From NCBI RefSeq assembly GCF_018350175.1, contig NC_058382.1, forward strand, positions 50,098,001-50,162,000: DNA of 64,000 nt. Direction: 5' to 3'. Source of the DNA: Felis catus. Lineage: Eukaryota. The translations under genes were made by a program, and so were the position numbers. Each line of letters begins with the position of its first letter. Position 1 is the stretch's first letter. Below, piece after piece: positions 20,960 through 45,864 of this stretch. Below the pieces are notes generated by a model that saw nothing but the letters and a program-made list of their open reading frames with translations, was not told where the DNA came from and did not search any database.

Positions 20960-22380
20960 TTTTCAGTATCGGATATTTTTCTTGTTGATTTATTTTTCCT
21001 GGTGTGTTTTTCTATCTTGACCGCGTAGGCCACCTCCATTTCTTCATTCCACTGATCAATGCTCAGTAAAATTTTCTTTACCAGGGAGATTATTTCCGTT
21101 TCTTTCGGGTTTTTTTTTCCCCTGAGGTTTTATCCGGTTCTCTTCTTTGTAGAATATTCCTGTTTCTTCATTCTGCTTGACTCTCTGTGTCGTGGACTCT
21201 GTGTACATTAGATAAAAGAATGCTTCCTGCGGGAGATGAACCTTATCATTCAACCCCGCCCTAGCCCTTGGCTGTCTTTCAAAGCTTTGTGATTGTCCAA
21301 GCAGCCTATTTTATTTTTAGAGGCCGCCAGAAGTTGAGGGAAGACCCCTCAGTGTCCCCAAGGGGGTGGGTGGGAGGAGAATCCCAGTGGGCTCCTGGAT
21401 GCAAGTTGATTGAAAGCCAGACCCTCATACAATAGTTTAAAAGTGTGCAAACGTATACGACTGTGAGACCGCCAGCTTAAGCCCTGCTGTCAACCAAAGC
21501 CAGGTGATAGAAGTATCCCCTGGTGGCCGCCGCAAAAACGGGGGCCTCAGACATAAAACCAGGGCCTCTGAAGTAAAACTGAGGCTCCGGTGTAAGACTG
21601 GGCATCCGACCTAAAAAGAGGGCATCCGACATAAAACCCAGGCACCTGTAAACCGGGCACCTGCTTTAAACCCCGGCACCTGACGTAAACTCAGCCATGT
21701 GACGTAAACCCAGGCACTTGACGTAAACTCAGCCACCTGACGTAAACCCAGGCACTTGACGTAAACTCAGCCACCTGACGTAAACCCAGGCACTTGACGT
21801 AAAATCAGCCACTTGATGGAAGACCCGCGCCTGCGGCCTATGAAATCTCCCGTCCAGGAGACCTGGGCGCCGGTCAGTCTCTCCCCGCCAGGACAACTTC
21901 AGCTGGCTTCCACACTCCAGTCAAACCCGATGTCTGCCCTCTCGGGTCCTCGCTCCGAGAAGCCAACGCTGTCGCACACAGGGTTTGGGCTTCCCCCTCG
22001 TCATCCCCGCATGGGACCCGGGTGAGTCTAAGCGCGGCCTGTGAGAACTGCCTCTCAGGTGTGTGGTCTGTGTGTTCAAAGCTGGGATTGTCTGATGCGG
22101 GGTTCAGACTCTTCAGTCTTCAGGGAGAGGCTCGGGTTTTGGGGTCGTCGGGGCTTAAGAGCCGGGGGGAGGGTCTGCGGGCCGACTGTGTCCCGGCCGC
22201 TCCTGGCGCGCTGCGCGTCTGTGTGGCCCTTCTCTCCTTCGCCTGAGGCACAGGAGGCCTCCAGCTCTTAGGGCTTTTTGTTTCCAGAGGAAGTTGTTCC
22301 ATAGGTAGCTGTAGACTTGGTCGGTTCCCAGAAGGAGCCGAGCTTAGGATCCTCTTCCGTCACCGTCTTGAACTGGAACG
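20960..22380 (-). mobile_element. Old L1-family 5'UTR plus degraded ORF1 start, 3'-truncated
   Basis: Minus strand starts gttccagttcaagacggtgacggaagaggatcctaagctc…tctacagctacctatggaacaa (L1M-type 5' end); near 21070-21175 degraded ORF1 N-terminus (aatgaagaaacagg…NNLPGKE). Confidence 0.75.
21535..21815. repeat. Minisatellite: ~19-20-bp units, homogeneous 38-bp dimer in 21681-21813
   Basis: Alternating TGACGTAAACTCAGCCACC / TGACGTAAACCCAGGCACT; TGACGTAA at 21681, 21700, 21719, 21738, 21757, 21776, 21795. Confidence 0.95.
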
Positions 22381-22400
22381 CCTCGGTAAGATGTTCTCGA
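21680..22400 (+). promoter_or_regulatory. CpG-island-like candidate promoter with CRE/ATF-like site array
   Basis: About 32 CpG in 21820-22260 by hand count in an otherwise CpG-poor window; seven TGACGTAA; donor CGG|GTGAGT at 22021/22022. Function is inferred. Confidence 0.55.
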
Positions 22401-23708: not shown

Positions 23709-24484
23709 TTAATCTTTATAGGGCCCTTTTTAGGTATGCAGGAAATACATTTCTAATTCAGTATACTTTTTAATACATCATACAGATTTATCTCTGAATA
23801 ACCCCAACCAGTCTGTAAGCTTTTGTAAGGCTGGAAGCACATTTTATACCTCTTTGCATCACATCAGTGCCCTTAATAGGAAAAAGTAAATGTGTTTTTG
23901 TTGATTTAGCTATTGTAAAAATTTAATACCAGGGAACTCAAAATACGTAGACGACATGCAAGATTTGGCAGACTCTTTTAGGATTAAGCAAATTCTAAAT
24001 TTTTAGGACCCCAATCAGTCAATTCCCCATGTATGTTGGAAATGTGAAAACCAGAGAGTTAGTATGAAATCTAAGTTTCTTCATGCCTGTTTAAAATTCA
24101 GCTTGATTTCATTTCTTGAAACCTGGTCTGTTCCCTACAATGTTGAAGGTAAAAATCACGAGAAATCACCGTATTACAAATGTAAAGAAATAGCAAGCAT
24201 AGGACCAATGCTGTTAGTGTTTTATTGTCATCTAGCACTTTTTTAGCCACTTAAAATATTTCACCACATTTGAGAGTCAGCACAATGTTAAGTGCCCTGG
24301 GAATAAAATGATGTGGTTCTGAGTCCTGATTGTGATTTCAAGCATTTGTTTAAATCTCTGCAATTCATGATAATTATATATATTTCTCATGATGCTTGGA
24401 AAAATTAAATGAGATTATACGATTGTACTTTGTAAACTGAAAGGCATTATAAAATGTTAACTACGATTTGGAGGTTTGAGGAAT

Positions 24485-24988
24485 GATCAACAATGTTTTG
24501 CATAATAAATTATTCCAAGACTTAGTGGTGTGAAAAAGCAATCATTTTATTTGCTCATATTTGCATGGCTCAGCAATTGGGAAATGATTTGACTAGGCAG
24601 CTCTTGATTGGGTCTGTAGTGCAATTGTGATCACATGTTGGCTATCACTATAGTTGTCTAGACTTGACTGGCAGGATGTCCAAGAGGGTTCACTCACATG
24701 ACTGGGAGCTGAAGCTGGTGGTAAGCTGGGGACCATAGCTGGGGCTATGAGTACGAGTTTCTTTCTTTACTCCTCTGCTCCAGCTTGGTGATCGTAGGGT
24801 AGCCATTTATTAAATGAATTCCCTAGACTGAGTGTCCCAAGAGAACGAGATGGAAGCTGCCTAGCTGTGGAGGCCCTGTGGTATCACTTCTGCATCCCAT
24901 TGGTCCTGATATTTAAGAAGGGAGGATAAACTCCCATCTGTCAATGGGAGGAGTACCAGTGATATCACAGACATATTTTAAAACCACC
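24485..24988 (-). mobile_element. Old MaLR LTR (MLT1K/L-like)
   Basis: tgcataataaattattccaagacttagtgg…aatcattttatttgctca…gatgtccaaga…ttcactcacatgactgg…atcacttctgc…atttttaaaaccac. Confidence 0.7.
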
Positions 24989-26540
24989 TCTTGCCATTAG
25001 AAAACTCAGAGGAGAGAGAGAGAAATTAAATGGGCATGTTGTAGAAAATGAGACCATATATTTACAAAAATGTTAATACTTTCCTGTTCCTAATTCTGTA
25101 CCAACATTATTTTTTTGATGGTTTGGTGAAAATGGTGGTGGGGTTTCCTAGGTTTTACAGACATGCATCTTGTTCTCCAAGAAAATTCTCTGTATGCTGT
25201 TATTTGAGGGGAAGACCTATCCGTGGATATCTTCTTTGTCACTTAAAGGGATGTACAGTTGGTTTTTGTAGAGTTTCATTTGATTCACTTACTTGAACTT
25301 TGTTGCCATAGCTATTCTCAGGAATTGTGTAATCAATAGGCAAATATTCCTAACCTTTCGACAGTTTAATAACCTATGACTTGGTGCTATTATTAGCGTA
25401 TATCTTTTTCAGAGGCCAATTATCCCAGCAGGTGATTAGGTTTTATCTCAGGCATCCCAGGTGGGGATTTTCCCAGCCTGTTTTGTAGCAATCCCCCAGG
25501 TACCTCACAATCACATCTCCTCTCTCTGGTGCTCCTATAAACTGACTGCCAGGTGCAGTTTACTCTTCCAAAGAAGGATTAGCTTATTTGCATCCATATG
25601 TGCTTTGTCATGTAGAAGGATTGGCAGGGAAAGTTGCTGGTGGTGCAGTTCCTGCCCCCAGGTGAAGCCAAACCTCTCACTGTGAAGTCCAGTGGGCATA
25701 TTTTGAGGAGGCTGCCTGCCAAAGAGAAGCCTCTGCTGTTGTATTGTTCCCAGCAAAAAGCAAATCTTTTCTGTTAGAGCCTCAGAATTTCTAGAGTTAA
25801 GACCGTTGAAGAAAGTGCTGGTTCTTGGAAGAAATACGTCAATATGTGTGTTTCATAGAAGACTAGGACAATAGAGCTAGATATATTCTAGTGACATTTG
25901 GGGAAAAATGTTTTTGCGATTATTGTTATTGTCATTGTATTAATTTCATCTCCTTCAGTCAATCCTTTTGTTAGAGCTTTTCTGACTCTTGAGAACCCCT
26001 TTCACTGGACCCATGTGGCAGTAGGTTCTCATGACATCTTAGAACCACACATCTACCACCATGAGCTAGCTGGGAAAAATTCCACAATATCTGGCCGGAG
26101 GGGAGAGATTTGAGAAAGCAGATGCTGTCTCAAAACAGTGTATAGTTACCTTACATTGATTACCAAAACTGTTCCTATTGACCACTCTCTAACATTACTT
26201 ATTGACTATGGTGAAAAAATCAGTTACTGTGGCAGAAGGAGTTCAGATATAAGATGGTATCTAGTTTGATTTCTTCAAATTCTTCTAATTCCTGAATGTG
26301 GAACCAAGGGCAAGTCCTGCAGGATCTCGAAGCTTTGGTGTTTTTAACTATGAATTGGAGATGTATTAATGATTTATGGAGTCATTGTTAACATTCAATA
26401 AAGTGCACTGCCCAGTGGTCAAATGAGTGCTGGTGAATCAACTGATCATATGATAAATAATGTCAGATTGTGGCAGAGGGTGAAGGGTAGTTGAAATGAC
26501 TCAGTAGAAATATTTTCTTCTGACTCAGTAGGAACGTTAA

Positions 26541-26766
26541 TTTTTTTTTTTAATTTTTTTTTCAACGTTTATTTATTTTTGGGACAGAGAGAGACAGAGC
26601 ATGAATGGGGGAGGGGCAGAGAGAGAGGGAGACACAGAAATCGGAAACAGGCTCCAGGCTCTGAGCCATCAGCCCAGAGCCTGACGCGGGGCTCGAACTC
26701 ACGGACCGCGAGATCGTGACCTGGCTGAAGTCAGACGCTTAACCGACTGCGCCACCCAGGCGCCCC
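26541..26766 (-). mobile_element. Very young feline SINE (SINEC_Fc-type)
   Basis: CpG-rich near-consensus body (gagccatcagcccagagcctgacgcggggctcgaactcacggaccgcgagatcgtgacctggctgaag); TSD GGAAC(G/A)TTAATTT. Confidence 0.97.
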
Positions 26767-27961
26767 TGGAACATTAATTTTGAATTAAACCCTTTGTTTG
26801 GACTAAATAAAATTTCTCTTTTTAAACATCAAAATAATCAATCTGAGAATAATTTGTATTCCTTATTGGATTAGTCAGGAGTTGGTCAGGAGAAAGGAAA
26901 TTAGGTATTTCAAACTAGAAGGGAATGAATACAGGGGGTTAGAGGCTTTCAAAGTCAGTGGAAGGGCTAAGGGAGAGACTGTACTAAGGTCAGGAATTTC
27001 AAGATAACTGCTAATGAATCCATTTGCCCACATCCCTGAACTTGGTGATACGTAGGAGGACATTTTGAAAGGGTCGGCAAATTGTCATATCTGCCATTTG
27101 CTGAAACCCTCACTTTGCCCACCATTGGCTTCATGGGAATTGTTGGCTGTTTATTTTTCACTTTTCAGATTTTTGTGGAGTGTCCCTCATGTTGGTTCAA
27201 AGGACTGTAAGGTTGATAAATATTCTTTGATATTGTATTCATATTGTATATGAGGATTGATATTTGAAAATAACTTTGTAAACTTTAACATGCTGTATTA
27301 CGGGTTTTTCCCTAAAAGACAGCCTTTGTTCTGAGACTTAGTCTTTAGAAGAATTTAACCGGGAAATAGTAAACTGGTTGAATTTGTATCCACCTTTATT
27401 TTTTTTATTTTGAATTACATACCTTCCAAATTACTGCTTTGTGGCCGACGATGATCTGCCGTCCAAAGCTTTGCTCTGGATGGGGTTGATGAGGAAACAC
27501 AACGTGCGCACAAGGCCAAGCTGCTGGTCTCTTCTGAAGGGTGGATTCTCTGGATCTATAGCTCCTGGGCTCTACTTGAACAGAAAAATTGCTAGGTAAT
27601 CAGCTTTGAGCCAATAACTCAAATCCAGTAGGCATGTGAACTGCTTTGCAATCTATGTTGATAGTTTGAGTAATTGACAATATGGTATCTATAATAGAGT
27701 GAGAACAATCCATAAAAAAAATTCTACCATTTCAGGTCATTTTTCCTTTCAGGGAGTGCTCTCTGTAAATACGGAGTTAGGAAGGCAAGGCATGGAATGG
27801 AAAGGCTTTACAGCCTTTGATGAAAGGCTTTACAGCTTTGATGAAAAAGGCTTTCTGATGTAACTTGTGCTAAGCTTTGGGGGTTACAAAGATGAATGCT
27901 TTGAGGATTGGTGCCCTTTATGAAAAATTCTGTATGCATGTTTAGACAAAGCTCCCTCCCC

Positions 27962-28180
27962 TTTTTTTTTAAAGTTTATTTTATTTTTGAGAGAGGGCGA
28001 GTGAGCATGTGTGCATGAGCATGGAGGGATAGGAGAGGGAGAAGGAAAGAGAATCTCAAACAGGCTCTGAGCTATCAGCACGGAGCCCGATGTGGGGCTC
28101 AATCTTAGGAACCATGAGATCATGACCTGAGCTGAATTCAAGAGTTGGCTGCTTAACCGTCTGAGCTATTCAGGTGCCCC
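27962..28180 (-). mobile_element. CAN-SINE
   Basis: Full reverse-complement body; AGCTCC(C/T)TCC flanking repeat. Confidence 0.93.
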
Positions 28181-29467
28181 AGAGCTCCTTCCTTTTTAAG
28201 CAGCCTAGCATGTTTATTGGTGCGTTCCAGTTGTGTACTTCTTTTCGGCCTTCTTCCTTAAATATAATGACCAGATAGAGACCCCATTGTGCCTACCTGA
28301 TCTTCTGAGGATCCTGTTTCTGTCTCCATTTCCTAATTACCTTTCTGTGACTGCTTGTCCATAACATACCAGTTATATCCTTGATTGCCAAAACACTAAA
28401 GGAAACAGGCCTTTGTCCTAGAGAAGCTACAGTCCCATATAATTGGGCTAGAAGTAGTGATTTTAAATGAATTTTGAACTAGAAAGATGTAGAACCCTTT
28501 TGGGTATTACTTTGTTTTAAGACCTCTTACCCATCTTTAAAGCTCTATTAATCAGTCCTTCTTTTCTGTCCTAGCCCTGACTGCTGACCCTGAGCTGGCA
28601 GTAGAAGTTAAGTCCTTCTATGAAAGTGATTTGTTGTTACTTCTGTATGGGTAAAGACCCAAAATCATGGATAAAGACAAATAGAAATCTGATGGCTCTC
28701 ACAAAGTAGAAATTAAAATTATTAAAATTATTAGTGCTGGATAATGTATTATATGTATCCTATAATGAGTAGAGGCAGCTGGAGCTCTGGAAAGGGTAGA
28801 TTTTTTTTCTTTGTGTGTGTGTGTTTGTATATAGTTATATGTATATTGCCCATAGACTTTCACATTGTTAAAGAAACGTTTGAGACAATACTATAGTTCT
28901 TACATACTGTACTTTCCTTTGAGAGTTTATTGGGCAGTTACCATATTTTTTAATGTAATCTGTATTTCTAATGTGACAGATTGAGATTTTGGGCTCATGA
29001 GAGCTCCCTAAGATGACATTTAGTAAGGGTGTCCACTTGCCTTCAATGTCTATGAAAGAAATGAACTGAAACATCAGGTAGTGGAGCAATTGTGATACCC
29101 ATAATGTGTTTGAGTACTTGCTGGTCAGAGTGGTGTTGAGGAAGAAATAAAGGGAAAAGAAACAAGCAGCTTTACTCTGTCCCTACTCTTCCTTGCAAAG
29201 CATTGTATTCTCATCTCCATCCAGTTGCCCTGCACTTGTGCACATGCTTGTTATCCTGCTAGATTATAATAACCTTTAAAAGAGACTTAGTTCATTCCCC
29301 CATCCCCCCACCTCAAAGCACCTAGTGGTGCTCCTTGAACACCTTTCAATAACTCAGGAGCAGGAGGTAGACTTAATTATTCACAGTACTTAAGCTAAAT
29401 GATGTGTATGCTTTGTAAACCACCATGGTTAGTGGAAAAATTCAGGTAATTAGGTTATCATGATACT

Positions 29468-29921
29468 CTCAGTGGGTTGAATGGTGGCCTGCAAAAAGAT
29501 AAGTCCAAATGCTAATAACCAGAATGGTTGTGGATGTGACCTTATTGGGAAAAAGTCTTTGGAGCTCTAAGTAAGGTAAGTATCATAAGATAAAGACATC
29601 AGTCTGGATTACCCAGGTGCACCCTAAATGCAGTAAGTTTCTTTTAAGAGAAACCTAGGGAGATTCAAAGAGAAAAGAGAGGGATGCAGCATGACCATGG
29701 AGACAGGGATATCTCCAGCCAAGGAACAACATTGTGGGCAGCCATAAGAAGCTAGGAGAGACAGACAGAATAGATTATCAGTCTAGAGCCTCTGAGGCAT
29801 TGAGGTCCTGCTGGCATCTTGATTTTGGACTGTTGGGCTCCAAGACTGTAAGAGAACAGCTTTGTGTTAAATGACCCAAGTTTGGAGTAATTTTTTGCCA
29901 CTGCCCTAGGAAGCTAACACA
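29468..29921 (+). mobile_element. MaLR solo LTR (MLT1C/D-like)
   Basis: agtgggttgaatggtggcc…gtgaccttattgggaaaaagtcttt…ctggattacccaggt…ttgattttggact…ctaggaagctaacaca. Confidence 0.85.
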
Positions 29922-32359
29922 CCTTAGTTGTGGACAAGTCCCCCCAGAGACTACCCTCCCTGTATTACGAACACCTGAGAGGCTAAGTGGGTCTGTGGGC
30001 TTCCTGATGTTCCTTTCTTAAATGCTTTACAACCCCATGCTGGAGGGCTTCTCCTCAGCAGAGATTCTGGGGACAGGGGAAACCTGTCCTCACCGAAATT
30101 GAGGCTATAGCTGCTGCACTGTCCAGAGAAGAGCTGAGCCCCAGAGTTGAGGGTTGGGGAGGGTAGGTGCTGCTATGACAACTTCTTGCTTTTTGAATCC
30201 TCTGCTAGAACCCTGCATTTATTGTTGTTTGGAATTTAATCCCTGTAGGGAGACAAGGTACTTCTAGACAACAGAGACTGTTTGAAGATAACAGCTGAAC
30301 ACACTGATGACAGTGCAGTAGGGAAGGAAATCATAGGGAAGAGAGTATTTGTATGTAGACAGATACTTGTTGGAGGAAGTAAGTCCTTAGCTGGACTGTG
30401 ATAAAAAAGAGGTTTGAATAAGTGGCAAGTGGAAAGGAATACATTTTAGGTGGCAGCACAGAAGAACAAATGAATGAAAGGGATGGAAACTAGTGTCTGC
30501 TTGAAGGGGAGATCAGGAGAACTATATTGAATGCTAACTGAACTAGAGTGTTCAGTTGCCATCAGAGGAATTTGGGTTTATTAATCTTGGGGTGCACTGA
30601 GGTTTGGTGAACAAGGTAGTAGGGCTATAAGCCTCTTTTAAGTGTTATCACCAGTGAGGTGGGTGACATTGTGGGTCCACTACCACATCTAAGTTTCCTC
30701 ATTCAGCAAATATTCACTGATGCCTCTAGGCAAGGGGAAGTGCCCTCCTTCTTTCCATGTGTATCCCATGCATAACTCCATCACTGCTGTGGAGTATCGC
30801 TCTATGTGGTTTGGATTCTTCCTGACTTTGAAAGGCCCCCAAGGGAAGTGTATTCAAGCACCTAGCATTGGGTCTGGCCATAAAACTGTTGTATAGCCAT
30901 GAGCTGTACAAAAGAGTTTTAAGATACTTTTTGTGCTTGGTCAAAGCATGACCGTGGTGCCTAACTAAGGAAAACATTCTTTTCCCTTTTCAGTCTCTGC
31001 ATATGGCCCTCCTAAGTGGAAAGCATGTCTTCATTGAATCAACCTCAGGTTCATAGGAAATGTGTGGCAAAACTACTTTGTTCTAAGTGTGTAATGTGCT
31101 AGGGTGAGGGAAGAAAGGAGCTGGGACCGAAGGTTTACAGGAGGGGTTGGTGGGAAACGTGCCAATTACTCTGCTCTCTGAGACAAATGGATGGGAGACA
31201 CAAAGAGATGTGTAGGAGTGGGGTTGGAGAGGACAGAAGAGCATAACCTAACAGCCTGTGTGCTGTCTTTGCTGTGTGAGCTGCTGGATGACTGGAGAAG
31301 GCATTTGTTGTGACGGATGCACAAAACATCGTTCTTGCCTTTAAGGCAGTGGATGAGAGACAGGAGACAGATCTGTGCGTAAAGTTGTACTTCCTGGCTT
31401 TTGTGTATCTGAGCAGTTTGCAGATAACAGCTGCACTGCTTGGGTGGTAACTTTCCCCTCCTACCATGGCTGCCTCTTCATACTGATTAGTAACATAGAT
31501 GCATTGCCTAAAACAGGTTCCTAAATACCTGAATGTATTCAGTCCTTGTGAAAAAATGGAGAATAGTTGAAAACTGATAAAAATTTGATGTCCCCGATTC
31601 TACATTTCAACTCTGCCACTGTCCATTCTGAGTGTTGATATGTGAGCCTCTTTACCTTCTTAGTTTGGGAACTGTCAGGCATATAAATGGTGGTTTTCGA
31701 TCTGGGCTTAACCCATTTCCATACAGAGTGATTTGTTGGAACATACGATAATTTGTGTCTTCTGAAAAATTATTTCCTAATAATAGTCCTCTACCCTCTT
31801 CTCATGGGAGGCATTCCAGGATCAATTCTCAATATGATGAAATGACCGTATACTTTGCTACCCATCACCATTGTCTTATCCTGGAACTTGTCTTAGAAGA
31901 CATTTAGTTTAGTGTGTTTGCCTTTTAAAGGATAAGTGGATTTTCTTTATATACCTCACTGGATGATATGTGAAACATGGTTCAACAAAGTAAAATATTA
32001 ATACAGTTAGAAACTAATATTTTGAATTTCATAAAATGGTTTCATTCAAAGGGAAAGCCAGTTAAGAGAGTTAAGAGAGTTGAGGAAGTGATGTCATAAT
32101 ATATTAAACTCTCCTGAAGTATAGGCATAGATAGTGCAACATGTATGTCTCTCAGTGTTTGCTATTTACATGAAGTATGTAGTAAAATTATCTACTAAAA
32201 TGTATTTTCACTTTGTGTTGGAAAATCAAATATTTTATCCCCTAATATCATCAGTAAACCTTCCTACAAGGTTTTTAAAGAAAGAAAGAAAAGTAAATCT
32301 TGATATATCCACCAGAATATCCTAAATGAAAAATACTAACAGTATGTAGCATGGTTGAG

Positions 32360-33160
32360 GATAGAGAACAACTGGGATCCTTTTTTTTTTTTTTAAAGTT
32401 GCTTTATTAATTTCTACACCCAACGTGGGGCTCAAACTGACAACCCTGAGGCCAAGAGTCACATGCTTTTTCAACTGAGCTAGCCAAGTGCCTCACAACT
32501 GGTTCTTATGCACTGTGGATGGTAGTGTAAATTGGTACAGCCACTTGGAAAGACTGTTTCGTACTATCAGCCAAGCTAGGTATATGTGCACCCCTTAACC
32601 TAGTAATTTCATTGTTAGGTATAGAAACAGCTGAAAGGCCTATGCATATTCACCAAAAGACACCTACGAGAGTGCTTGTAGCAGGACTATTTGTAATATT
32701 CTCAAGCAGGAGACCACTCAAATATCAATCAAGAGTTGAATAAACAAGTATCTGTAAGGTATCCTACAATAACAAGAATGAATGAAGTATTGCTATAGGT
32801 GACAATAGGAATAAATCTAACAAAATAGTGAAAGAAGCCAGGTGATAATATACCTTAAATAAAAAAAAAAGGCAGATTAATACGTGATTGAAGAATTCAG
32901 CAAAGTGTTTAACTTTGGGGGGCAACTCAGAGGGGCACACAGGGCCTAGGAGAGGGGGCTTTCTGAAATGCTGGGTCGTGTTCTTGATCTGAGTGATGGT
33001 TCCATGGAGTTCCTTTGTGAAAATCCATCAACAACTCACCCTTTGGTTTTTTAAATTTTTGTATTTTTTCTTGTTTCATTTTTATTTTTTTGTCAGTCCA
33101 CCAATATACTTTTATTGACATTTATGTCTATATTATACTTCATAGGACATTTATAAAAAT
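32360..33160 (+). mobile_element. Old L1 3' fragment (L1ME-like)
   Basis: gtggatggtagtgtaaattggtacagccacttggaa…ttcaccaaaagacac…gggggctttctgaaatgctgg…tcttgatctgagtgatgg. Confidence 0.75.
32381..32494 (-). mobile_element. Short tRNA-Lys-derived CAN-SINE nested in the L1
   Basis: tctacacccaacgtggggctcaaact…caagagtcacatgct…ctgagctagccaagtgcc; ACAACTGG on both sides. Confidence 0.9.
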
Positions 33161-33296
33161 GAACATGAACCTAATGCTATGCCTATTTTGGGGTTATTGC
33201 TCTCAAAATAATTCAACAAAATAGTTCTGGTAATTGGATGAAAAAACATTTGAAAGAAATTAAAGGGTAAAAATTTTTTTAATTAAATGGCCACTT

Positions 33297-33507
33297 AATT
33301 ATTTAATGTTTATTTTTGAGAGAGAGAGAGAGACTGAGAGACTGAGAGTAGGGAAGGAGCAGAGAGAGGGAAACACAGAATCCGAAGCAAGCTCCAGGCT
33401 CTGAGCTGTCAGCACAGAGCCTGATGTGGGGCTCAAACTCAAGAACAGTGAGATCATGACCTGAGCCGAAGTAAGAGGCCCAACTGACTGAGCCACCCAG
33501 GTGCCCC
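33297..33507 (-). mobile_element. CAN-SINE
   Basis: Full reverse-complement body. Confidence 0.95.
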
Positions 33508-34622
33508 AGTAAATTACTATTTAATCAGAGCTTAAGAATATTAAGAATTAAGAACAGTCTTAGATTAGGAAAGAGATCTTTTTGTGCTAAAAGCCTGTAA
33601 AGTGTTAATGACTGAAAAAAACCCCAAAGTGTTTAAGAATAAGTTAAAACAACATGGTTTGACAGATTTGAGAGAGATGAGAACACATTTTCATTAAAAA
33701 CAACTGGTAATTTTAAGATAGTAGATATGCATACCTAGTTTGTAATGGCAAGTTGATTTATAGTATGTATAATACTTATCGGTGGAATAAATATTTGCTA
33801 TGCAAAATAAAGCACATCATATGGAAGTGAATGAGGTATCTACTTTGTTTTAAAGTAATCCTAAGAAATTTGAGGAAAAGATAATTAGCAGTTAGACTTG
33901 AAGATGTGGGAACAATATGACAAAGCCAAAATAAGGAAGCAATAAAATAAACAACAGTAGAACATTTTCGTAAAATAATTACCTGCATGTATTGCTTTCT
34001 GGGGAGGCAGAGAACAAAACAAAATCAAACACCTTCACTTGAATATATATTCAGGTCTTAAACCTTGAAAATTGGGGTGAAAGGTCCTAAACACTTATAA
34101 AAGGTGGCTTAAGGAATGTTACCAAAGACCAAGAATTTGGTGAAACAATTATGTGGAAATTAAAAAAACAAAAAACAAAAAACCAGACACCTTGAGAATT
34201 CTCTTTAGACTTTTCAGAAATACACATTGGTAAGTGAAGTATCTCTGCAATAACAGAGAAGATATTTAAAGGGCCATAACTGTTAGAATGTAAATGTGGT
34301 GAGTATCAAAAATAATGCAGATTTCCTGGGTGTAGGATTACCTAAAGTACCCCAAGGTCCCCTCTGTCTACCTGTGATAAGGCGTTTAGATAAAAAAATC
34401 AAGGCTTTTGCTTAGTATCTTCAAAAAATGAAATGACCAAATTATTCTTGGACATTTGACACATCGAATCGGAATATTCCTACTAACTAAGGTGGGTATG
34501 AATGGATGTTAAAGTGTACAGGTGCAGGATAGTCCTGGCCCTCATGTTCAGAATCTGCACCTATAACATAGTTTAGGAGAACACTACTTTTACCATATTT
34601 TATTTATGTTACTTAATTATTT

Positions 34623-34737
34623 GAAGAAGGAAGAGGAGGAGGAAGAAGGGGAGGAGAAGTAAGAGGAGGTAGAGGAGAATGAGAAGGGGAAGGTGAAAGA
34701 GAGGAGAGGAAAGGAAATGAGAAAAAGGAAATAGAAT
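34623..34737. repeat. Purine-rich (GAG/GAA) low-complexity tract
   Basis: Almost exclusively A/G on + strand. Confidence 0.85.
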
Positions 34738-35629
34738 AAACTTAAGGTTTTAGTTTCCGTATCTGGCTGCAGAAAATTCCTGGGCTTGACATCTAACCTG
34801 CTGAATTAATAAAAATCTCTTTGGTGATTCTGATGATCAGCAGAGCTGGGGATAACTGGGTTAGAGAATACTGAGATTGTCAGTGTTCTGACCCTCCTGG
34901 GTTCTACTCTGTAAGGTTTTATGAAGTGTTAATGAGATTGCATACTAGTATCCTCACCATTACTTTCAGTGCCTCACTCCACGAGAATGAAGTATGTGGA
35001 AATCTCTGACCCTATGGTCAGGCCATTTGGGGGAGTATTTTGGAACAGAGAGGGCTTCCTGGACTCCTTAAATTATAACAAATTTAGGGCAAGAAATGGG
35101 TCTTTTCTAACTCTACCTCTGGTGCCTAATGTAGAATGATAGTAAATGTACTGAATTTGATGCATTATGCAGATTTTGTGGGTGCTGCCCAAGACTGAAT
35201 TCTAGCAGAGACGCTGATTTGTTAGAAGTTATCATTGCTGATAAGAACAAGAAGCCCATGATGCAGGAATTAGATTTAGAATAAATCTATCTACACTATA
35301 AGAGCATTGGTTGAATTTGAACCCAGGGAATCACTATTTCTTTTATGCCCTCACTGGAACATATAAAACCCAGCCCTGTTTTGGGTGGGGTAGTGGTTTC
35401 ACAAGGGATGAAAAGTAGAAATGTCAGATGTAGGAAAACAGGAAAATGCAATTACTTTAATAGCATTTCTGGTATTGATTCTGGATGGGTAGCAAGCAGT
35501 GGTTAATAACCCAAAATACAGGAGAAGTTTAAACATAACTTTCATTTGAATCAAGTGGGAGATTTCTATATGCTCAGATACTGTAGTTTAAAACAAAACC
35601 TTTTTCTTTTCAACTTTCTCAAAATAAAG

Positions 35630-35808
35630 AAACATTAAAAAAATAGAGTGTGTGTGCACGGACATGTGCTCACAAGCAGGGGAGGGGGAGAGAGAGAATC
35701 CCAAGCAGGCAGCATGCTGTCCATGCAGAGCCCCATCCCATGAACGGTGAGATCATGACCTGAGCAGAAACCAAGAGTGGATGTTTGACTGATTGAGCCA
35801 CCTAGGCA
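35630..35808 (-). mobile_element. Degraded CAN-SINE
   Basis: gagaatcccaagcaggc…gagatcatgacctgagcagaaaccaagag…gagccacctaggca. Confidence 0.85.
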
Positions 35809-37199
35809 TTTCTGTTCAGCTTTAATTAAAATAAAATTAATTCATCCAAGAGAAGATTCTCAAGTAATCACAAAGTAAATTTCATGAGGAAACATGGTCA
35901 TCTTGAAATAACTCGTATTTATCTTTTCAAAAAAGTTACATTTTATAGCCCAGATCTACCATGAATTCTGATAGGATTCAAGTGTTTCAATATGATTAAG
36001 TGAAAGGATTTTTAATGCTGTGACTAGTTTTTAATTGGGACCTTATTAAATGTAAGGTAATATAATTCCCTGTAATATAAACAGGGAATAATTTCAGCTT
36101 AAAAGTGTTTTAATTTCCATAAATGTGTAACAGAAGGATTCCTAGAAAATTTTGCATTTAACAAAAGTAATTTTGGGACCCCATACCTTTGTGCAAAATA
36201 TGATATGTACTAGCCTTGTACAGTATTGTTTGTAACTTGCAGCATATGGCAAGATAACTGATTTAGAGTCCGATAGCATTACATTTTAGATAAGGCAGCC
36301 AACTGTATAAACACATTGTTTCTGTAAATTTCACACTGCCTTGTTATTCTGGCACCTGCTGTTCAAGGAGAGGAAAGTGAAGGAAATAAAACTCAGCACA
36401 AAATAGAGTGGGCGCTTGAAGTGGCCACTGCTGTGAGGTACAAAGAGGAGACACAAAATGGAAAGGCAAGGTATGTTTCTTACTGGTAGGGGAAGAGCTA
36501 ATATTCAGTAGAATATTATTTTGTTTAATTGAGAAAAAAATGAATAAGGTGAAGTGAAATTTGAGAGGAAAAACAAGATTTTAATTTAATTTAATTTAAT
36601 TTTATTTTTTTTACAAGATTTTAATTTTAGATCACAGACTTTTAGAGCTGGAATGGATTTATGGAATCCCAATCTAGTCATTTTACAATTAAAGAGAGGC
36701 TCAGAGAGGTTGGTACATGAAATACACATGATCCACATGATTTTAGGATTCTGTCTAAAGTATCATTTCTTTATTAATTTATTTTTGTAATTTTTCATTC
36801 TTGGAATAATGAAAGAATTGCGTTCACAGATGTTTGAGTGTTTTTGGAAGAGTGACTGGCCGGAGATCAGAGCTCTCCTTTCAGGAACAAGAGGGCTCTT
36901 TTTGGGTGCTGAGCCTCCAAGCCTTAGCCCTTTGGGGAGAGGCCTCTGTCCTGTGGCCAAACCCTGGTAGCAGAGGATGAGGGGAATTACTGGGCTTCTC
37001 AGACTTCACTATCTGATTCCTTAATCACCTTACAGACATAGAATCTAAGGGCCATGCTGGGACGCTAGAGATTCTTGTAATATAGACTGGTAGGGGAAAT
37101 TCTTCTAAAAATGTTAAGAGTCAGGGAGAGCAGAGTTTGACTGAGTGTCCCGTATCCACCTATGGAACTGGAGTGCCTGGAGTATTCTCCTGTGTGACC

Positions 37200-37360
37200 A
37201 GGTCACTGAAAAGAACATAGACTTGGAATCAGAACATCCTGGGATTGAATTTTGACTCCGTAAAGGGACATTCCTTGTGACCATGTATAAGTACCAAACT
37301 CTCTGGATCTCTGTTTATTGTGAGGGGAAAAAAGACAGATGGCATACAAAATACCTAGTA
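37200..37360 (+). mobile_element. MIR fragment
   Basis: gaaaagaacatagacttggaatcagaacatcctgggattgaattttgactc…tgtgacc. Confidence 0.6.
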
Positions 37361-37674
37361 ATGGCCTTCTCTGCCAAACACAGAAGAGTCCAACAGTAAA
37401 TTTGTATGAGTTTCCTTCAAATTCCTGAAGATTTCTTTGACGGTGTGCAGAATCTGATAGCATTAATTTCTTTTTGTTGTTACCTAATTTGCAAACTTGG
37501 AGCTAAGAACATTCAAAATCATCTTGGATCACCATATATTGAGACGATGAGCAATTTCCTTAAAAGCAGAGAACATTAATTATTAGTCACTATGTAAATA
37601 AGTTTTCAGTGTTGACTCCACTGATTTTCACATCCTTTTATCTGAACACCAATTCTGGCTTGAATGATGTTTTT

Positions 37675-39072
37675 TTTTTTTTTCAATATATGAAATTTAT
37701 TGTCAAATTGGTTTCCATACAACACCCAGTGCTCATCCCAAAAGGTGCCCTCCTCAATACCCATCACCCACCCTCCCCTCCCTCCCACCCCCCATCAGCC
37801 CTCAGTTTGTTCTCAGTTTTTAAGAGTCTCTTATGCTTTGGCTCTCTCCCACTCTAACCTCTTTTTTTTTTTTTTTCCTTCCCCTCCCCCATGGGTTTCT
37901 GTTAAGTTTCTCAGGATCCACCTAAGAGTGAAAACATATGGTATCTGTCTTTCTCTGTATGGCTTATTTCACTTAGCATCACACTCTCCAGTTCCATCCA
38001 CGTTGCTACAAAGGGCCATATTTCGTTCTTTCTCGTTGCCATGTAGTACTCCGTTGTGTATATAAACCACAGTTTCTTTATCCATTCATCAGTTGATGGA
38101 CATTTAGGCTCTTTCCATAATTTGGCTATTGTTGAGAGTGCTGCTATAAACATTGGGGTCCAAGTGCCCCTATGCATCAGTACTCCTGTATCCCTTGGGT
38201 AAATTCCTAGCTAGTGCTACTGCTGGGTCATAGGGTAGGTCTATTTTTAATTTTCTGAGCAACCTCCACACTGTTTTGCAGAGCGGCTGCACCAATTTGC
38301 ATCCCCACCAACAGTGCAAGAGGGTTCCCGTTTCTCCACATCCTCTCCAGCATCTATAGTCTCCTGATTTGTTCATTTTGGCCACTCTGACTGGCGTGAG
38401 GTGATACCTGAGTGTGGTTTTGATTTGTATTTCCCTAATGAGGAGCGACGTTGAGCATCTTTTCATGTGCCTGTTGGCCATCCGGATGTCTTCTATAGAG
38501 AAGTGTCTATTCATGTTTTCTGCCCATTTCTTCACTGGGTTATTTGTTTTTCGGGTGTGGAGTTTGGTGAGCTCTTTATAGATTTTGGATACTAGCCCTT
38601 TGTCTGATATGTCATTTGCAAATATCTTTTCCCATTCCGTGGGTTGCCTTTTAGTTTTGTTGGTTGTTTCCTTTGCTGTGCAGAAGCTTTTTATCTTCAT
38701 AAGGTCCCAGTAATTCATTTTTGCTTTTAATTCCCTTGCCTTTGGGGATGTGTCGAGTAAGAAATTGCTATGGCTGAGGTCAGAGAGGTCTTTTCCTGCT
38801 TTCTCCTCTAGGGTTTTGATGGTTTCCTGTCTCACATTCAGGTCCTTTATCCATTTTGAGTTTATTTTTGTGAATGGTGTGAGAAAGTGGTCTAGCTTCA
38901 ACCTTCTGCATGTTGCTGTCAAGTTAGGCCAGCACCATTTGTTAAAGAGACTGTCTTTTTTCCATTGGATGTTCTTTCCTGCTTTGTCAAAGATGAGTTG
39001 GCCATACGTTTGTGGGTCTAGTTCTGGGGTTTCTATTCTATTCCATTGGTCTATGTGTCTGTTTTTGTGCCA
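37675..39072 (-). mobile_element. Young 5'-truncated felid L1 (1.4 kb)
   Basis: ORF2 C-terminus ([14 protein letters not shown]…[16 protein letters not shown]), 3'UTR and poly-A; perfect TSD TTGAATGATGTTTTT at 37660-37674 and 39073-39087; TT/AAAA cut site. Confidence 0.98.
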
Positions 39073-39609
39073 TTGAATGATGTTTTTAAGATACATAAAG
39101 GGCTACAACAATTCACAATACTCAGAGGGGTGGGTAGTGCATGGGTAGAGCTGTAGTACAGCTGGCATAGAGATCAAGGTTCTGCGGAAGAATGGAGCTC
39201 ACTAATTTCTTTTTCATTTTTATTGAGTTGCCAGTATTTTGTGTATAATGTTGATGAATTTGAACATCTGTATACAACCTGTGATAATCATCATCACAAA
39301 CAAGGTAATAAGAATATCTGTCACCTCTAAAAGCATTCTTGTGTTCACATGCTTTATTATTACTATTTATGTTAACACTGAAACATGACATCTCCCCTGT
39401 TGACACCTTTTTAAGAGTACAACACTGTATGGTTAACTATGGGCTCTAAAGTTACAGTTCTACAAGATAACTAAGTTCTGGAAATCTGCCGTTACATGAT
39501 TTTTTAAAAAATGGTGGTTATTCACTGCAGTGTGCTTTGATTAGGTAGGTTGATCCAAGTGTAATCTTCTAGGAGGGAAAGGAAATTTAGAGTCATGTCA
39601 TCAAATTAC

Positions 39610-39610
39610 A

Positions 39611-39673
<63 letters not shown>
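39610..39673. repeat. (CA)n microsatellite
   Basis: About 31 CA units with one interruption. Confidence 0.97.
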
Positions 39674-39674
<1 letters not shown>

Positions 39675-39874
39675 TGGCAAAACCTTATATGAAAACAAAA
39701 ACCAACTACCAGAACAAAAAAGAATGTTGCATGGAATATAAATTACAGCTGAAAAGAAATACCATTTATAGTTTCAATTATATCATAAATATTTGAAAAG
39801 TAGTGTTAATGTTTCTTAATATTTCCCCAGTTCCTTTTTGCCAAAGGATTAAAAAATGTACTTTTATACTGTCC

Positions 39875-40330
39875 TTCATTTATTCAGTTTCATTAAGTGG
39901 GCACCAACAATTCACCTTGGTGCAGAAACTATTCAGCTATCCAGTAAGTAAAACTAGAGGTTTAAATGTTGGAATAAAGCAGTCTGGTGGGGCAAAGGGG
40001 GACAATGAACAAGCATACAATATGCTTCCAGACACTGATAAGTACTATGAAGGCAGATAGAGAGGGCTGAGAGAGTAATAAGGGGTCGTGGTCTGTTTGA
40101 CATATGGTGACCAGGATAGGCCTCCCAAGAAGGTGGCATTAGAGCAGAGACCTAGATTAAGTGAAGGCTGGAGACATGGAGTTCTGGGGGGAAGAGAATT
40201 ACAGGTACAAAGAACAGCAAAAAGGAAAAAGCACAGCATTTTTTTGTAGATAGGAAGGAACATATCACACATACCCAGTACCAGAAGGCTGGGTGATTCA
40301 AAGAATGGAGAAGGTGAGAGCAGAAAGGTA
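39875..40330 (-). mobile_element. LINE-2 fragment (appears to continue at ~41710-42170)
   Basis: ttcatttattca…gataagtactatgaag…ggcctcccaagaaggtggcattagagcagagacct…gggaagagaattacagg L2 motifs. Confidence 0.65.
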
Positions 40331-40334
40331 GACA

Positions 40335-40545
40335 GAGACAAACTGAGCATTGATTGGAGGGAGGCGGAGGAGAGGGGAAAATGAGTGATGGGCATTGAGG
40401 ACGGCACTTGTTGGCATGAGCACTGATTGTTGTATGTAAGTGACAAATCATGGGAATCTGCCCCTGAAACCAAGAGTAACTGTATACACTGTATGTTAGC
40501 TAACTTGACAATAAATTCTATTTAAAAAACAAATAAAAAAAAAAA
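40335..40545 (+). mobile_element. Carnivore L1 3'UTR fragment with poly-A
   Basis: acaaactgagcattgattggag…gtgatgggcattgaggacggcacttgttggcatgagcac…aataaa + A tail. Confidence 0.9.
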
Positions 40546-40561
40546 TCTCGGAGGTGGAGGG

Positions 40562-41190
40562 AAAGTTAAAAATAGAACTACCCTATGATGCAGCAATTGC
40601 ATTACTAGGCATTCACCCCAAGAATACTGATTTGAAGGGGTACCTGCACCCCAATGTTTATAACAGCATTATCAATAATAGCCAAACTATGGGAAAAGCC
40701 CAAATATTCATCAGTTGATGAATGACTAAAGAAGTGGTGTGTACACACACACACACACACACACACACCCCAGAATATTACTCACGCATCAAAAGGAATG
40801 AAATTTTTACATTTGTGACAACATGGTTGGAACTAGAGTGTGTTACGCTAAGCTAAATAATTTAGTCAGAGAAAGACAAATACCAAATGATTTCACTCAT
40901 GTGGATTTTAAGATACAAAACAGATGAACATATGGGAAGGAGGGGGAGGAAAGAGAGGAAAACAAACCCTAAGAGACTCTTAAAGATAGAGAACAAACTC
41001 AGAGTTGATGGAGGGAGGTGGGTGTGGGTTGGGCTAGATGAGTGATGGTCATTAAGGAGGACACTTGTTATGATGAGCACTGGGTGTTGTATGTAAGTGG
41101 TGAATCACTGAATTCTGTTCCTGAAACAAATATTGTGTTGTATGTTAACTAACTGGAATTTAAATAAAAACTTGAAAAGGGGGAAAAAAA
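40562..41190 (+). mobile_element. 5'-truncated carnivore L1 (ORF2 end + 3'UTR)
   Basis: aaaatagaactaccctatgatgcagcaattgc…cagagaaagacaaatacc…ggaatttaaataaaaacttg. Confidence 0.9.
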
Positions 41191-41235
41191 GGTAGGAAGA
41201 GTAGGCTATAGGTTTTTTTCTGAATTTTTGAAGCT

Positions 41236-41706
41236 GTGATTGTAAATTGTGTGACCTTTGCTAGTCTACAGTGCCCAATTGTTTGGTCAAACACCAGTAT
41301 AGGTGTGGCTGTGAAGGTGTTTTTTTGTTTTTTGTTTTCTTTTTTAAAGATGTGATTAACATTTATATCAGTAGACTTTGAGTAAAGCAGATTACTCTAC
41401 ATAATGTAGGTGGGCCTCATTTAATCAACTGAAGGCCCTACGAGGAAATATTGAAGTCCTCTAAAGAGGAAAGAATTCTTCCTCCAGACTGAAACATTGA
41501 AATTCTGCCTGAGCTTTCAGCTTTTGGACTCAAGACTATAACATTAACTCTAGCGGGAATTTCTAGCCTGTTAGCCCACTCTGCAGATTTTGGACTTGCC
41601 AGCTCCCAAAACTGCATCAGCCAGTTTTGTCAAGTAAACAAATCTTTCTCTAACTCTGTGTGTCCACCTTATTGGTTTTGTTTCTTTGGAGAACCCAGAC
41701 TAATAA
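41236..41706 (+). mobile_element. ERVL LTR MLT2B-like
   Basis: gtttggtcaaacaccagt…gatgtgattaacattt…gtaaagcagattac…ggtgggcctcatttaatca…tggagaacccagactaata. Confidence 0.85.
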
Positions 41707-42184
41707 GGAAGTCATAAGATTGATTTGAGCAAGGGCATAATATGATTTGATTTGCATTTCCAAAGATCACTAATAACTTCAAGGAGGGAGAATTGCCTAT
41801 TGGCAGCAAGAGGGAAGCAGACTAGCTAGAAAGTTGTTCTCTCTTGTAGGTGAGACCTGACAGTGGCCTGGAAGTGATTGGCGGTTGCTGGATTTGAGAA
41901 ATATGTTGCAGGATTTTCAGACAGATCAGACGAAGGTTGTAGAGACAAGCAGATAAATGAAAGCTTAAGTTTTGGGCCTGAGCAGCTGTGTGAATGGTGC
42001 TCTATTTATAAAGGCATTTCTGGAAGCCTGGGTAGGAACAGGTGTGCAGAGGTGGAAAAGAGTGGAGGGAAGATGTATGAAGGATCCAGAGTTTTGTTTT
42101 AGGCACATTAATTTCATGTAGACCATTTGCTGTCCAAATGGAGAAATCAGGAAGACTGTTGGCTGCAGGCACATGTCTCTCTAT

Positions 42185-42410
42185 ACGGTGGTAGCTAAGC
42201 GCACAGCCTCTGGAACTGGAACATCTGGTTTCAAATCCCAAATCCGTTCTTCAGGGTACCCTCACTGTCTTAGTCTACTTGTCTGAAAAACGGGTTGGTA
42301 ATAAGCCTTACTGGAGTGGCATGAGCCATTAAATAAGTCAACATATGTAAGCTCTTAGGATGTACCTGAATGATCACAGAATATTTTATGTAAATCTTAG
42401 CTACTATTAT
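42185..42410 (+). mobile_element. MIR SINE
   Basis: ggtggtagctaagcgcacagcctctgga…ggtttcaaatccca…atatgtaagctcttagga. Confidence 0.65.
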
Positions 42411-44339
42411 AGTCAGAGTTTTATCTTTCTGGCCCATCAAATGGCTAGATTGAGACAAGAGACTAGGGGATGATTGCTCTGTATGGGTTTTGGTTGCTAG
42501 CTCAGAGTTCAAACTATAAGCGAGAGTCTGGTGAAGCCATGTGAACCTCCCTTTGGACGGTGAGTGGTGATGGTGTTACTTGGAGTGGTGGCATCAGAAG
42601 ATTGTGCTTTAATAACCTACTTTATAGGTGATTGCAACATCGTATTGTCTGTTGCAGCCCCACTCTTCCCAGATTATCTCCCTGCCTTGGCTACTTTGTT
42701 TTTTTCCATTGTGCATATCCCTTTGTCATGTACTATATATGACCTGCTTATTTTTTTGTTAATTTCTGTCTCCTCTTGGTGGAATATAAGCTCTAGGAGG
42801 AGTGCCTGGAGGAATGAATGATATTTACTGGTGCTTATTATTCCCTTTCTGTTTCTTTATTCTATTTTGTCAAATATTTTCCTGTGAGAAAACCATATCA
42901 AAGAGAAGGTTGGACATTAATATGATTCTCTGGACCTTTCTGACTTGTGCAGAACTTGAGTTTTCATTGAGACAAACCTCCTTTATGAAAGGGAATTTCA
43001 GAGGAAGCCTCTGATGGCAGTTTCAATTTTGACTTTGGAAATCAATTCCGGAATTGACACACAGTCTCCTGAAAGTGATGGTACTTTTTGTTGTTGGTTA
43101 TCCACTCGGTTTCTCTGCCAGTCTATGTGTGGGCAGTGTTCCACTCCTTGCAAATTCTGATCACAGATTTTTTTTTTTTTTCTCAGCAATGCTTGTCGAT
43201 GAGAGGCATTGAAAGCTATGCAGAGTGGAGGTTGATACATGGCCCAGTCAATCTATGACTTATGAGACCTATTGCAAGTCCAAGGCATTGTATCGATTCT
43301 GCCGAATGGACTGGAAACTGACCTTCATTGCACAGAACCCTCTAACTTGCTCCTTGTCTGTTTATTCCCGATAGAGCACTTGCATCATGCAGCTTTGTTC
43401 CAAAATCATTACCTTTTATTTCCCTTTACATTCCATCCTGATTTTACCATAAGTGTGAAGAGTGGACAAATGGATGTCTTTATTTAGCACAAAAGCAGGG
43501 GTCCTGTTTCAATGTCAGCTTGTCAGAGGCAGTTGATTTTATCTTCTCTCACTGCATGATTTTAGTACATAGATACTCTTTCCTTGGTCATGTAGGCATT
43601 GTGTTGAAATAAATTAGAGTTGATCTTTATTTATGCCAGCCCTTATTAATGACCACCCTTCTCATATTGTATTACAAATAGTACTTAAAAATATTTTTCA
43701 ATTATCCTGATCAGATTAATATTATTAGAGCTGTTTTCTTATTTCTCATGGTGGTTGTACCAACCAGCACATTATGGCACATTGTTGGAGTTCCACAAAT
43801 GATGGTTCAAGTGAGTTAATTATTCATTCCTGAGGCTGTATGGGAAGGGGCACTGACAGTTTGCTCTCAAGTCTTACTTTTATCTATAGAATGAATTACA
43901 GTTTGAAATAGGACTTTCCTTATCAGCCATTCTCTTTGTTCTTGAAAGTAGGTGTGGAATGGACCTCAAGATACCACCTGGAAAAAATAACCTATTTCTG
44001 GATTAGGTTATAATCTTTTGTACCTTTTGAATTCCAGGCATGTTTTATATCATTAGAGAATGGTCATTCCATTCTAGTGACTAAAATTATAGGACATTCT
44101 AGTTTGAAGGAAGCTTGTAAATCCACTAGAGAATGTTCATTATAAGTAGTGGGAACTGAGAATTTAGGGACTTACTCCAGGCTACTGGGCCATCAGCTCA
44201 TGTAGGAAGGAAATTCATGGCTTCCGTGCTCCACCATGATATTAGAGCGTGGTTTGGAGGTAGTTAATTAACTTACCTAAGGCAGAACATTCTAAACAAA
44301 CCTGTGTTCTTACAAAAAAAATTTTTTTTAAATGTGAGT

Positions 44340-44638
44340 GTCTTATGTGGAACTTGAGAAACAACAGAAGACTATGGGGGAAGGGAAGGGGAAAAAATAG
44401 TTTGAAACAGAGAGAGAGGCAAACCCATAAGAGACTCTTAAATACAGAGAACAAACTGAGGGTTGATGGGTGGGCACGGGAGAGGGGAAAATGGGTGATG
44501 GGCATTAAGGAGGGCACTTGTTGGGATGAGCACTGGGTGTTGTATGTAAGTGGTGAATCATGGGAACTACCCCCAAAACCAAGAGCGCACCATTTACAAT
44601 GTATGTTAGCTAACATGACAATAAATTGTATTAAAAAA
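44340..44638 (+). mobile_element. Carnivore L1 3'UTR fragment
   Basis: cttatgtggaacttgagaaac…aagagactcttaaatacagagaacaaactgagggttgatgg…aataaa. Confidence 0.92.
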
Positions 44639-44643
44639 TTTTT

Positions 44644-44850
44644 GGGGGTGACTCACTTGGCTAAGTGTCCGACATCAGCTTAGGTCATGATTTTGCGGTT
44701 CATGAGTTGGAGCCCCATGATGGGCTCCGTGCTGACAGCTTGGAGCCTGGAACCTGCTTCACATTCTGTGTCTCCCTCTCTCTCTCCGCCCCACCCCCAC
44801 TCACACTCTGTCACTCAAAAATAAAGATTGAAAACGTTAAAAAAAATAAA
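44644..44850 (+). mobile_element. CAN-SINE
   Basis: ttggctaagtgtccgacatcagcttaggtcatgat…gagcctggaacctgcttc…CT tract, A tail. Confidence 0.9.
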
Positions 44851-45145
44851 TTTTTTGAGTGTAATTGACACACAGTGTAACAATAATGTCAAGTGTACAC
44901 CTTAGTGATTCAACTCTGTATGGTATACTGTGCTCACCGCGAGTGCAGCTGTGGTCTGTCACCATACAATACTATTACAATATTGGCTTTACTCTCTATG
45001 CTGTGCCTTTTGTTCCCTTGACTTACTCATTTGATAATTGGAAGCCCATATCTCCCTCTCCTCTTTGTCCATTTTGCCCATCCCTGTCCCCCTTCCCTCT
45101 AGCAACCATCAGTTTTCTGTATTTATGGGTCTGATTTTGCTGTTG
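44851..45145 (-). mobile_element. Older carnivore L1 3'UTR fragment
   Basis: taattgacacacagtg…ctgtcaccatacaatactattacaatattg…ctctagcaaccatcagtt. Confidence 0.8.
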
Positions 45146-45864
45146 GTTCATTTTACACCTGCATTCCTTTTCAGAGATGCCTTGATGTGCCTGCTGAAGG
45201 CTGTCAGGGAGGGACGAGGGACATTAGGCTGTGAGTTTGGTTTCTGCAAAACATACCCTGAGTCATTTTGTTATGGCTGTTGATACTCGGAATTGTCTTG
45301 ACCTCACCTGGGTCTTTGCTTTTGTTGTGCTCAATTTACCTGAGGGGAAGAAAAGTGAATTGATCAACAGAAGAGATGTGGACAATAAAATAGATAAACA
45401 CCACCCCCCCCCCATACACCCCAAGATAAAAAGGAAAGAGAAGAATTCAAATAAAACCTTGTAAGAATAATGATTCATTCACAATAAATGTCATATCCCT
45501 TGCCTTGGATCTGTGATGTCATCATTATTGTTTATGTAGCATTCCCGACTGTGCAACCTGTACTGTGGATAGTGCATCAAGGGGTGGGGAGCCTCATGGC
45601 CATTATTAGATGTCAGTATAGTCATTAATGCACAAGTTAATGAGCTTTTTATATGGCATGTGGAATAAGTGCTAGGGAGAAAAATGAAGTGAAGGAGGAG
45701 AGGTAATCTTGATGGACAACCATAGGAACATTTTATTTTGAATAAACTTCCCGGGTTTGCAAGTTATATCCTAGATAGCACCGTATGGAGCAGATGTGGG
45801 CAAAGCCACTGGCACTAAGAAAATGGGATCACAACCATTAAGATGAGGCATTTGGCTTTTTAAA

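Follow-up and report, generated by a model that had tools for sequence, protein, structure and literature searches.

Many orphan CpG islands of the cat overlap tracts of GC-biased gene conversion (gBGC) (PMC11170920, Kocher et al. 2024), and strong recombination at conserved hypomethylated loci has been described in 33 of 52 mammals, many with an intact PRDM9 (PMC11161765, Joseph et al. 2024); the text of the latter paper does not name felids among the high-hotspot species. Ancient human L1 subfamilies are reported to have only minor antisense activity in the 5'UTR (PMC4908685, Criscione et al. 2016), and human transcription starts derived from transposable elements (TEs) are described as mostly island-poor (PMC12963367). 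For unmethylated IAP LTRs, a perfect CRE has been shown to mediate activation by CREB1 (PMC9729108, Kaluscha et al. 2022). No paper on the locus described here, or on an antisense promoter of a feline L1, came up in our literature search; the locus may have an entry in the island and gBGC tables of PMC11170920.

The locus lies in a 64,000-nucleotide stretch of Felis catus DNA (the window; positions count from its first base, and features are collected in Table 1). It resembles the orphan islands of PMC11170920, a paper that names the cat among its high-overlap species, in being intergenic, within a transposon, and enriched in A/T-to-G/C (W>S) substitutions; it differs from them in having its ancestral state read from paralogous copies of the L1 and in having a CRE-like minisatellite at the border of the tract. 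Like the PRDM9-independent hotspots in PMC11161765, it combines a short, promoter-like extent with a high equilibrium GC (0.67-0.82, leaving out CpG sites), but those are mostly conserved promoters, whereas this locus is transposon-born. With the L1 antisense-promoter chimeras of PMC4908685 it shares an L1 5'UTR with an antisense donor and possible downstream splicing; the human activity, on the other hand, belongs mainly to young L1HS/L1PA elements using their own promoter, and here we have an old, rewritten copy. Like the IAP LTRs, whose promoter is active only when unmethylated (PMC9729108), it has a CRE-type motif in a retroelement; unlike their one perfect, LTR-inherited TGACGTCA, its seven TGACGTAA variants were amplified locally in tandem. 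We hypothesize that this is a germline-hypomethylated orphan island, both promoter and recombination hotspot, that would fire on the plus strand, antisense to the L1; we put the chances of this combined reading at about even.

Table 1. Features of the island, its array and its surroundings, in window coordinates.
Feature	Positions	Strand	Basis or remark
Old 3'-truncated L1 5' fragment	21076..22379	-	Paralogs L002-L020 and L049-L056 align colinearly to either side of the array
AATAAA	21310..21315	-	Some 500 bases before the core of the island; would terminate an upstream-antisense RNA
Minisatellite grown from a unit within the L1; units of 19-20 bp, about 14 in all	21531..21819		Related units in L015 and L052
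Seven CRE-like TGACGTAA sites, 19-bp spacing	21681..21802	+	Forms a higher-order repeat of 38 bp, the most recent section of the array
Core of the CpG island, with excess A/T-to-G/C change	21820..22385		GC 0.62, 38 CpG, o/e 0.71
ATG-started frame that enters the donor after 60 codons plus 2 bases	21840..22021	+	No coding sign
Single CCCCGCC, which we take to be a GC box	21883..21889		Motif scan
Candidate first-exon donor CGG/GTGAGT	22019..22027	+	8/9 consensus positions; from the L1 subfamily
Second donor-like site CAG/GTGTGT	22056..22064	+	8/9 consensus positions
CAAGACGGTG, changed form of the YY1-type motif in the L1 sense promoter	22361..22370	-	Change makes a CpG
Weak donor-like TCG/GTAAGA	22383..22391	+	6/9 consensus; on the L1 5' boundary or immediately beyond it
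G>C skew, lower-CpG domain, possibly body of a plus-strand transcript	24001..64000	+	GC skew, CpG o/e

Searches of the cat's own genome returned 19 further matches to the element, most of them sharing a 5' end on the minus strand at about 22379; dispersed copies that align from one common 5' end are what is expected of an L1 5'UTR. Homology to these paralogs picks up again beyond the array and stops at 21076, and its presence on both sides therefore identifies the element as the 3'-truncated 5' end of an L1 with the array inside it. The ORF1 of a young L1 in the window has no match in 20900-21200. From the look of the family, we presume an L1M-type 5'UTR. The motif at the shared 5' end, which we likewise assume to be YY1-type, is altered in the way that the initial annotation described: position 22365 is TG in 11 of 13 paralogs, and the motif is intact in the young L1, at 46722. 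That young L1 (46710-52640, plus strand) is nearly full-length, with an open ORF1 and an ORF2 containing in-frame stops, and it sits in the 3' end of an older minus-strand L1. Two other L1 pieces were observed in the window: a minus-strand 3' piece at 37677-39070 with 96.6% identity to 51254-52638, and an old, CpG-depleted plus-strand L1 at 1305-2830, in which an internal deletion has joined a short 5' end almost directly to the 3' part.

The 32 CpGs originally counted in 21820-22260 are indeed there (GC 0.64, CpG o/e 0.70), and the wider interval 21311-22600, with GC 0.557 and CpG o/e 0.65, is a CpG island by thresholds of at least 500 bp, GC at least 0.55 and CpG o/e at least 0.65. Equal CpG richness in other copies of the family would have spoken against the promoter reading of the initial annotation. 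None of the 19 paralogs is as rich: their first 565 bases hold 1-17 CpGs (o/e 0.04-0.40), versus 37 (0.69) here, and eight further 1.2-kb paralog pieces have o/e values of 0.04-0.45. The CpG-richer copies include L049 (0.45) and L015 (0.38); the former (G000:C31:15649330-15650530), an old L1 of the same family with 38 CpGs in 1.2 kb, is a possible second case. The accompanying claim that other old repeats of the window are CpG-depleted holds for eight such stretches (o/e 0.00-0.28; their identities are our assumption). CpGs are also plentiful at one more place in the window, 46710-47640, in the 5'UTR of the young L1 (45 CpGs, o/e 0.50). Over the next 200 kb no 500-bp bin exceeds 21 CpGs, against 29 and 27 in the island bins.

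Were these CpGs retained or gained? We counted substitutions against the majority state in an alignment of the window copy with 13 of the 19 paralogs; L007, L009, L011, L014, L019 and L020 were left out because they lose colinearity early. The initial annotation supposed that germline protection had preserved the element's CpGs, and did not consider GC gain; the counts go against it. Only 3 of 13 ancestral CpGs survive, 5 have become TG or CA, and some 25 CpGs stand at columns that carry no ancestral-CpG signature. The window copy has 68 W>S and 32 reverse (S>W) changes, compared to 417 and 492 in the paralogs (p 3e-5). In strict gap-free columns the W>S counts are 25/83 versus 147/1477 (p 8e-7), and the S>W counts 6/72 versus 192/1228. 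Removal of CpG-prone sites leaves W>S rates of 0.35-0.39 versus 0.12-0.17 (three settings, p 7e-8 to 2e-4), with W>S transversions also raised (p ~1e-3) and GC-neutral changes not raised. In the first ~560 bases, G/C has thus accumulated some 2.5 times as fast as normal. We rejected retention as the principal cause: most of the CpGs are new, and protection alone leaves the raised W>S transversions unexplained. Since the CpGs are mostly new rather than protected, a recombination-linked GC gain is needed.

This excess of A/T-to-G/C changes, at non-CpG sites and including transversions, with GC-neutral changes unchanged, is the footprint that GC-biased gene conversion would be expected to leave, and we consider it very likely that the island originated in this way. 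The lowered S>W rate that strong gBGC also predicts is not clearly seen (0.07-0.17 versus 0.16, a difference that is not significant). With CpG sites excluded, the paralogs have equilibrium GC values of 0.44-0.50, well below those given above, L008 reaching up to 0.63-0.67. The W>S excess is short and sharply bounded: it lies within 21900-22385, beyond which the flank is not polarisable, and is absent in 21231-21556, where the same copy is normal (8/64 and 11/63 at 21400-21556; 13/109 and 10/86 at 21231-21460). The paralog tree is star-like, and the window copy is its longest branch (0.43 versus 0.14-0.34); normal divergence elsewhere in the copy argues against greater age or a different subfamily.

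All seven TGACGTAA sites that had been noted upstream on the plus strand were found, starting at 21681, 21700, 21719, 21738, 21757, 21776 and 21795. However, they belong to a single tandem expansion (38-bp period, 94% matches), and therefore represent one recent event instead of seven independent ones. L015 and L052 contain one or two related units whose core is one position off the CRE-like form; the array was amplified from one L1 unit. TGACGTAA is itself one mismatch away from a perfect CRE, and we presume that CREB/ATF would bind this variant. A genome-wide search for doubled TGACGTAAA gave six overlapping matches at the array and, at the level of the reversed control (three matches), one elsewhere; that other locus, L047, is unrelated sequence, and no second array of this kind was found in the genome. 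A separate expansion was seen in a SINE at 23330-23516, in which a GA tract has grown to 21 copies of a 9-bp unit.

The strong donor at 22021/22022 is present as originally described. The paralogs have CAG/GTGAGT in 4 of 13, GTGAGT in 6 of 13 and GT in 11 of 13, so the donor is a subfamily feature and gives no sign of selection. The other proposed donor, TCG/GTAAGA, is where it was said to be, yet falls below our scan cut-off of 7 of 9 consensus positions, and the CAG/GTGTGT at 22059, which the initial annotation does not mention, is stronger. The candidate first exon has one stop in any frame, versus 1.46 in shuffles (P 0.55), which is the chance level, and its 21840-22021 frame has no Pfam match. 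A metagenome scan with the predicted exon end returned a sole match, L048, a 21-base chance match in bacterial-like DNA of 70% GC. A crude, strict exon scan found no plus-strand internal exon downstream in the window, and eight candidates on the minus strand; by eye, 60860-60900 is acceptor-like on the plus strand (a long pyrimidine tract followed by CAG), and it failed that scan.

The proposal that the island fires antisense to the L1 finds partial support. The layout of donors and polyA signals is a rule for the direction of transcription, and here it favours the plus strand: within the L1 the minus strand has no donor above 7/9 whereas the plus strand has two at 8/9 within 250 bases; further minus-strand AATAAA hexamers occur at 20994 and 20920, and the first plus-strand polyA hexamer past the island is at 22912. 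Relative to the array, the GC tract is confined to the plus-downstream side. Also in favour, GC skew is higher downstream (0.102 over 58 blocks, against 0.022 over 30 blocks upstream; block permutation p 0.008) and CpG o/e is lower there (0.15 against 0.28; p 0.0005), in an analysis in which repeats were masked by self-BLAST only. Against the proposal, the donor is inherited, and T/A skew, which transcription should raise downstream, drops there from 0.068 to 0.014; the best GC-skew change point is at 24-26 kb, and a CpG change point at 15.5 kb fits as well as one at 24.5 kb. Substitutions in 110 SINE heads gave no significant strand asymmetry, and CpG retention in SINEs (0.18 upstream, 0.25 downstream) did not differ in the predicted direction. 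Weighing these observations, we regard a plus-strand promoter as an evenly balanced prospect.

Two regional patterns were also observed. Non-repeat DNA in 1-15500 has roughly twice the CpG o/e of the downstream part (0.28-0.32 versus 0.15), and may be a broad low-methylation domain. SINE heads are on the minus strand in 70 of 91 cases in the window (p 2.5e-7), compared to 7 of 19 in paralog loci (L021-L040). Nine of the ten SINE heads upstream of the island are also minus, and the bias is therefore region-wide; it may reflect a long plus-strand unit or fork direction.

Sequencing runs may give a further indication of transcription. At least 50% of the words of 21500-22700 occur in 18 of the 24 runs listed, these being the best of a larger run set. 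Fourteen of the 24, from seven studies, are RNA or guessed to be RNA and contain 64-89% of 128 words, although runs ranked for containing the stretch may be DNA or chromatin libraries; uniform genomic sampling predicts at most 0.42 of the words in the seven of these 14 for which it was computed. Two run shares, 0.73 and 0.89, equal the query fractions lying after 21820 and 21634, and were given no weight. No more than two of the runs are recorded as RNA, and both are metatranscriptomes (gut and 'mammal'). The suggestion of a testis- or CREM-driven promoter has no support; we think such specificity unlikely.

The island is an orphan in a gene-poor interval. A Rap1_C (TERF2IP-type) exon lies ~145 kb before it, on the plus strand (C39:49,974,798), and a discoidin exon, which we assign to CNTNAP4 from gene order, ~392 kb after it, also on the plus strand (C39:50,512,196). 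Among 150 of the 207 stop-to-stop frames of at least 62 aa outside the young L1 blocks, Pfam gave one sub-threshold match, and no coding exon was recognised in the window; Rfam gave no match in 20300-64000. Homeodomain motif regexes over the window and the next 200 kb produced nothing convincing, and a homeodomain search that scored 150 of 385 candidates listed none near the locus. An open frame of 112 codons was noted on the minus strand at 5041-5376, in non-repeat DNA, with no Pfam match and no real PDB match.

Several other accounts of the locus deserve consideration. In one, a hotspot acted without any promoter: conversion made the GC tract, the minisatellite is a by-product of the hotspot's edge, and the CRE-like sites and donor are idle. 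Minisatellites adjoin human hotspots, and the GC gain, its local extent and the position of the array at the tract edge all fit; the donor, moreover, is inherited, and since the array looks younger than the slow GC gain, the hotspot may have given rise to the array and not the reverse. However, a CpG o/e of 0.71 in methylated DNA would need very strong ongoing conversion, the stretch is contained in RNA-labelled runs, and PRDM9-directed hotspots are described as short-lived (PMC11323403), long-lived ones being promoter-like; we rate this account as rather unlikely, though not negligible. It is improbable, too, that germline methylation spared the CpGs that the L1 came with and that the array drives a testis/CREM antisense promoter. 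The higher retention of ancestral CpGs here (3/13 versus 9/178 in the paralogs, p 0.04) is in its favour, as are the activation of unmethylated retroelements by CREB1 through CRE motifs, reported for TGACGTCA (PMC9729108), and the finding that TE-derived starts are most numerous in human testis (PMC12963367). The novelty of most CpGs, the W>S transversions and the metatranscriptome origin of the on-record RNA runs all count against it.

Instead of a plus-strand promoter, the island could be one that fires in both directions or on the minus strand (L1-sense), or an enhancer, in each case acting towards the TERF2IP side, where other mammals have DUXB, anchored at TERF2IP, with a Cphx homologue (a CPHX-like gene) beside it (PMC3004920). 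Orphan islands mark enhancers (PMC11170920), and the exon scan gave more minus-strand than plus-strand candidates; yet the YY1-type motif of the L1 sense promoter is broken, minus-strand donors in the L1 are weak and are followed by AATAAA at 21315, 20994 and 20920, and no homeobox motif was seen in the window. We judge this, too, to be improbable. Less probable again is a separate GC-rich L1 sub-lineage, from which the differences would be inherited and not local. The CpG-richer copies L049 and L015 could be taken to hint at one, and genome searches score only the best candidates; but among those best-scoring candidates no closer relative or sister copy was found, the 3' part of the copy diverges normally, and exclusion of states shared with L015 still leaves 56 W>S versus 31 S>W changes.

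The combined reading that we prefer, an island that is both promoter and hotspot, would run as follows. The 5' end of an old L1 landed on the minus strand and at first decayed as methylated DNA; its first ~560 bases later gained G/C, most likely by gBGC at a long-lived, promoter-type hotspot in germline-hypomethylated DNA; such hypomethylation of the island is, on the CpG evidence, probable. That gain would have built a new orphan CpG island, while the adjoining L1 unit became CRE-like and was amplified seven-fold, presumably to be bound by CREB/ATF. Plus-strand transcription, antisense to the L1, would start just past the array, and the inherited donor at 22021/22022 may yield a long non-coding RNA running into the TERF2IP-CNTNAP4 interval; we hold splicing at this donor to be possible, with the balance tilting against it. 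We also entertain, as a long shot, a self-reinforcing birth of a promoter: one base change makes an L1 repeat unit CRE-like, bound CREB/ATF would keep the germline DNA unmethylated, the open site would draw meiotic breaks despite PRDM9, and gene conversion would both build the island and amplify the site. Its end point would be a felid-lineage first exon spliced far downstream, which we liken to ORF0, and which is possibly a distant 5' exon of CNTNAP4.

Each ingredient of this scheme has already been described, and on present evidence the locus is an ordinary orphan island; we regard it as a plausible case, as yet unproven, of a route by which promoters are already known to originate. If it is a promoter, the dozens of sister L1 copies, which supply the starting sequence, would let the origin of a CpG-island promoter be followed base by base at a single locus. 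The locus separates 'CpGs kept' from 'CpGs made', and makes the order of events, array first or hotspot first, directly testable.
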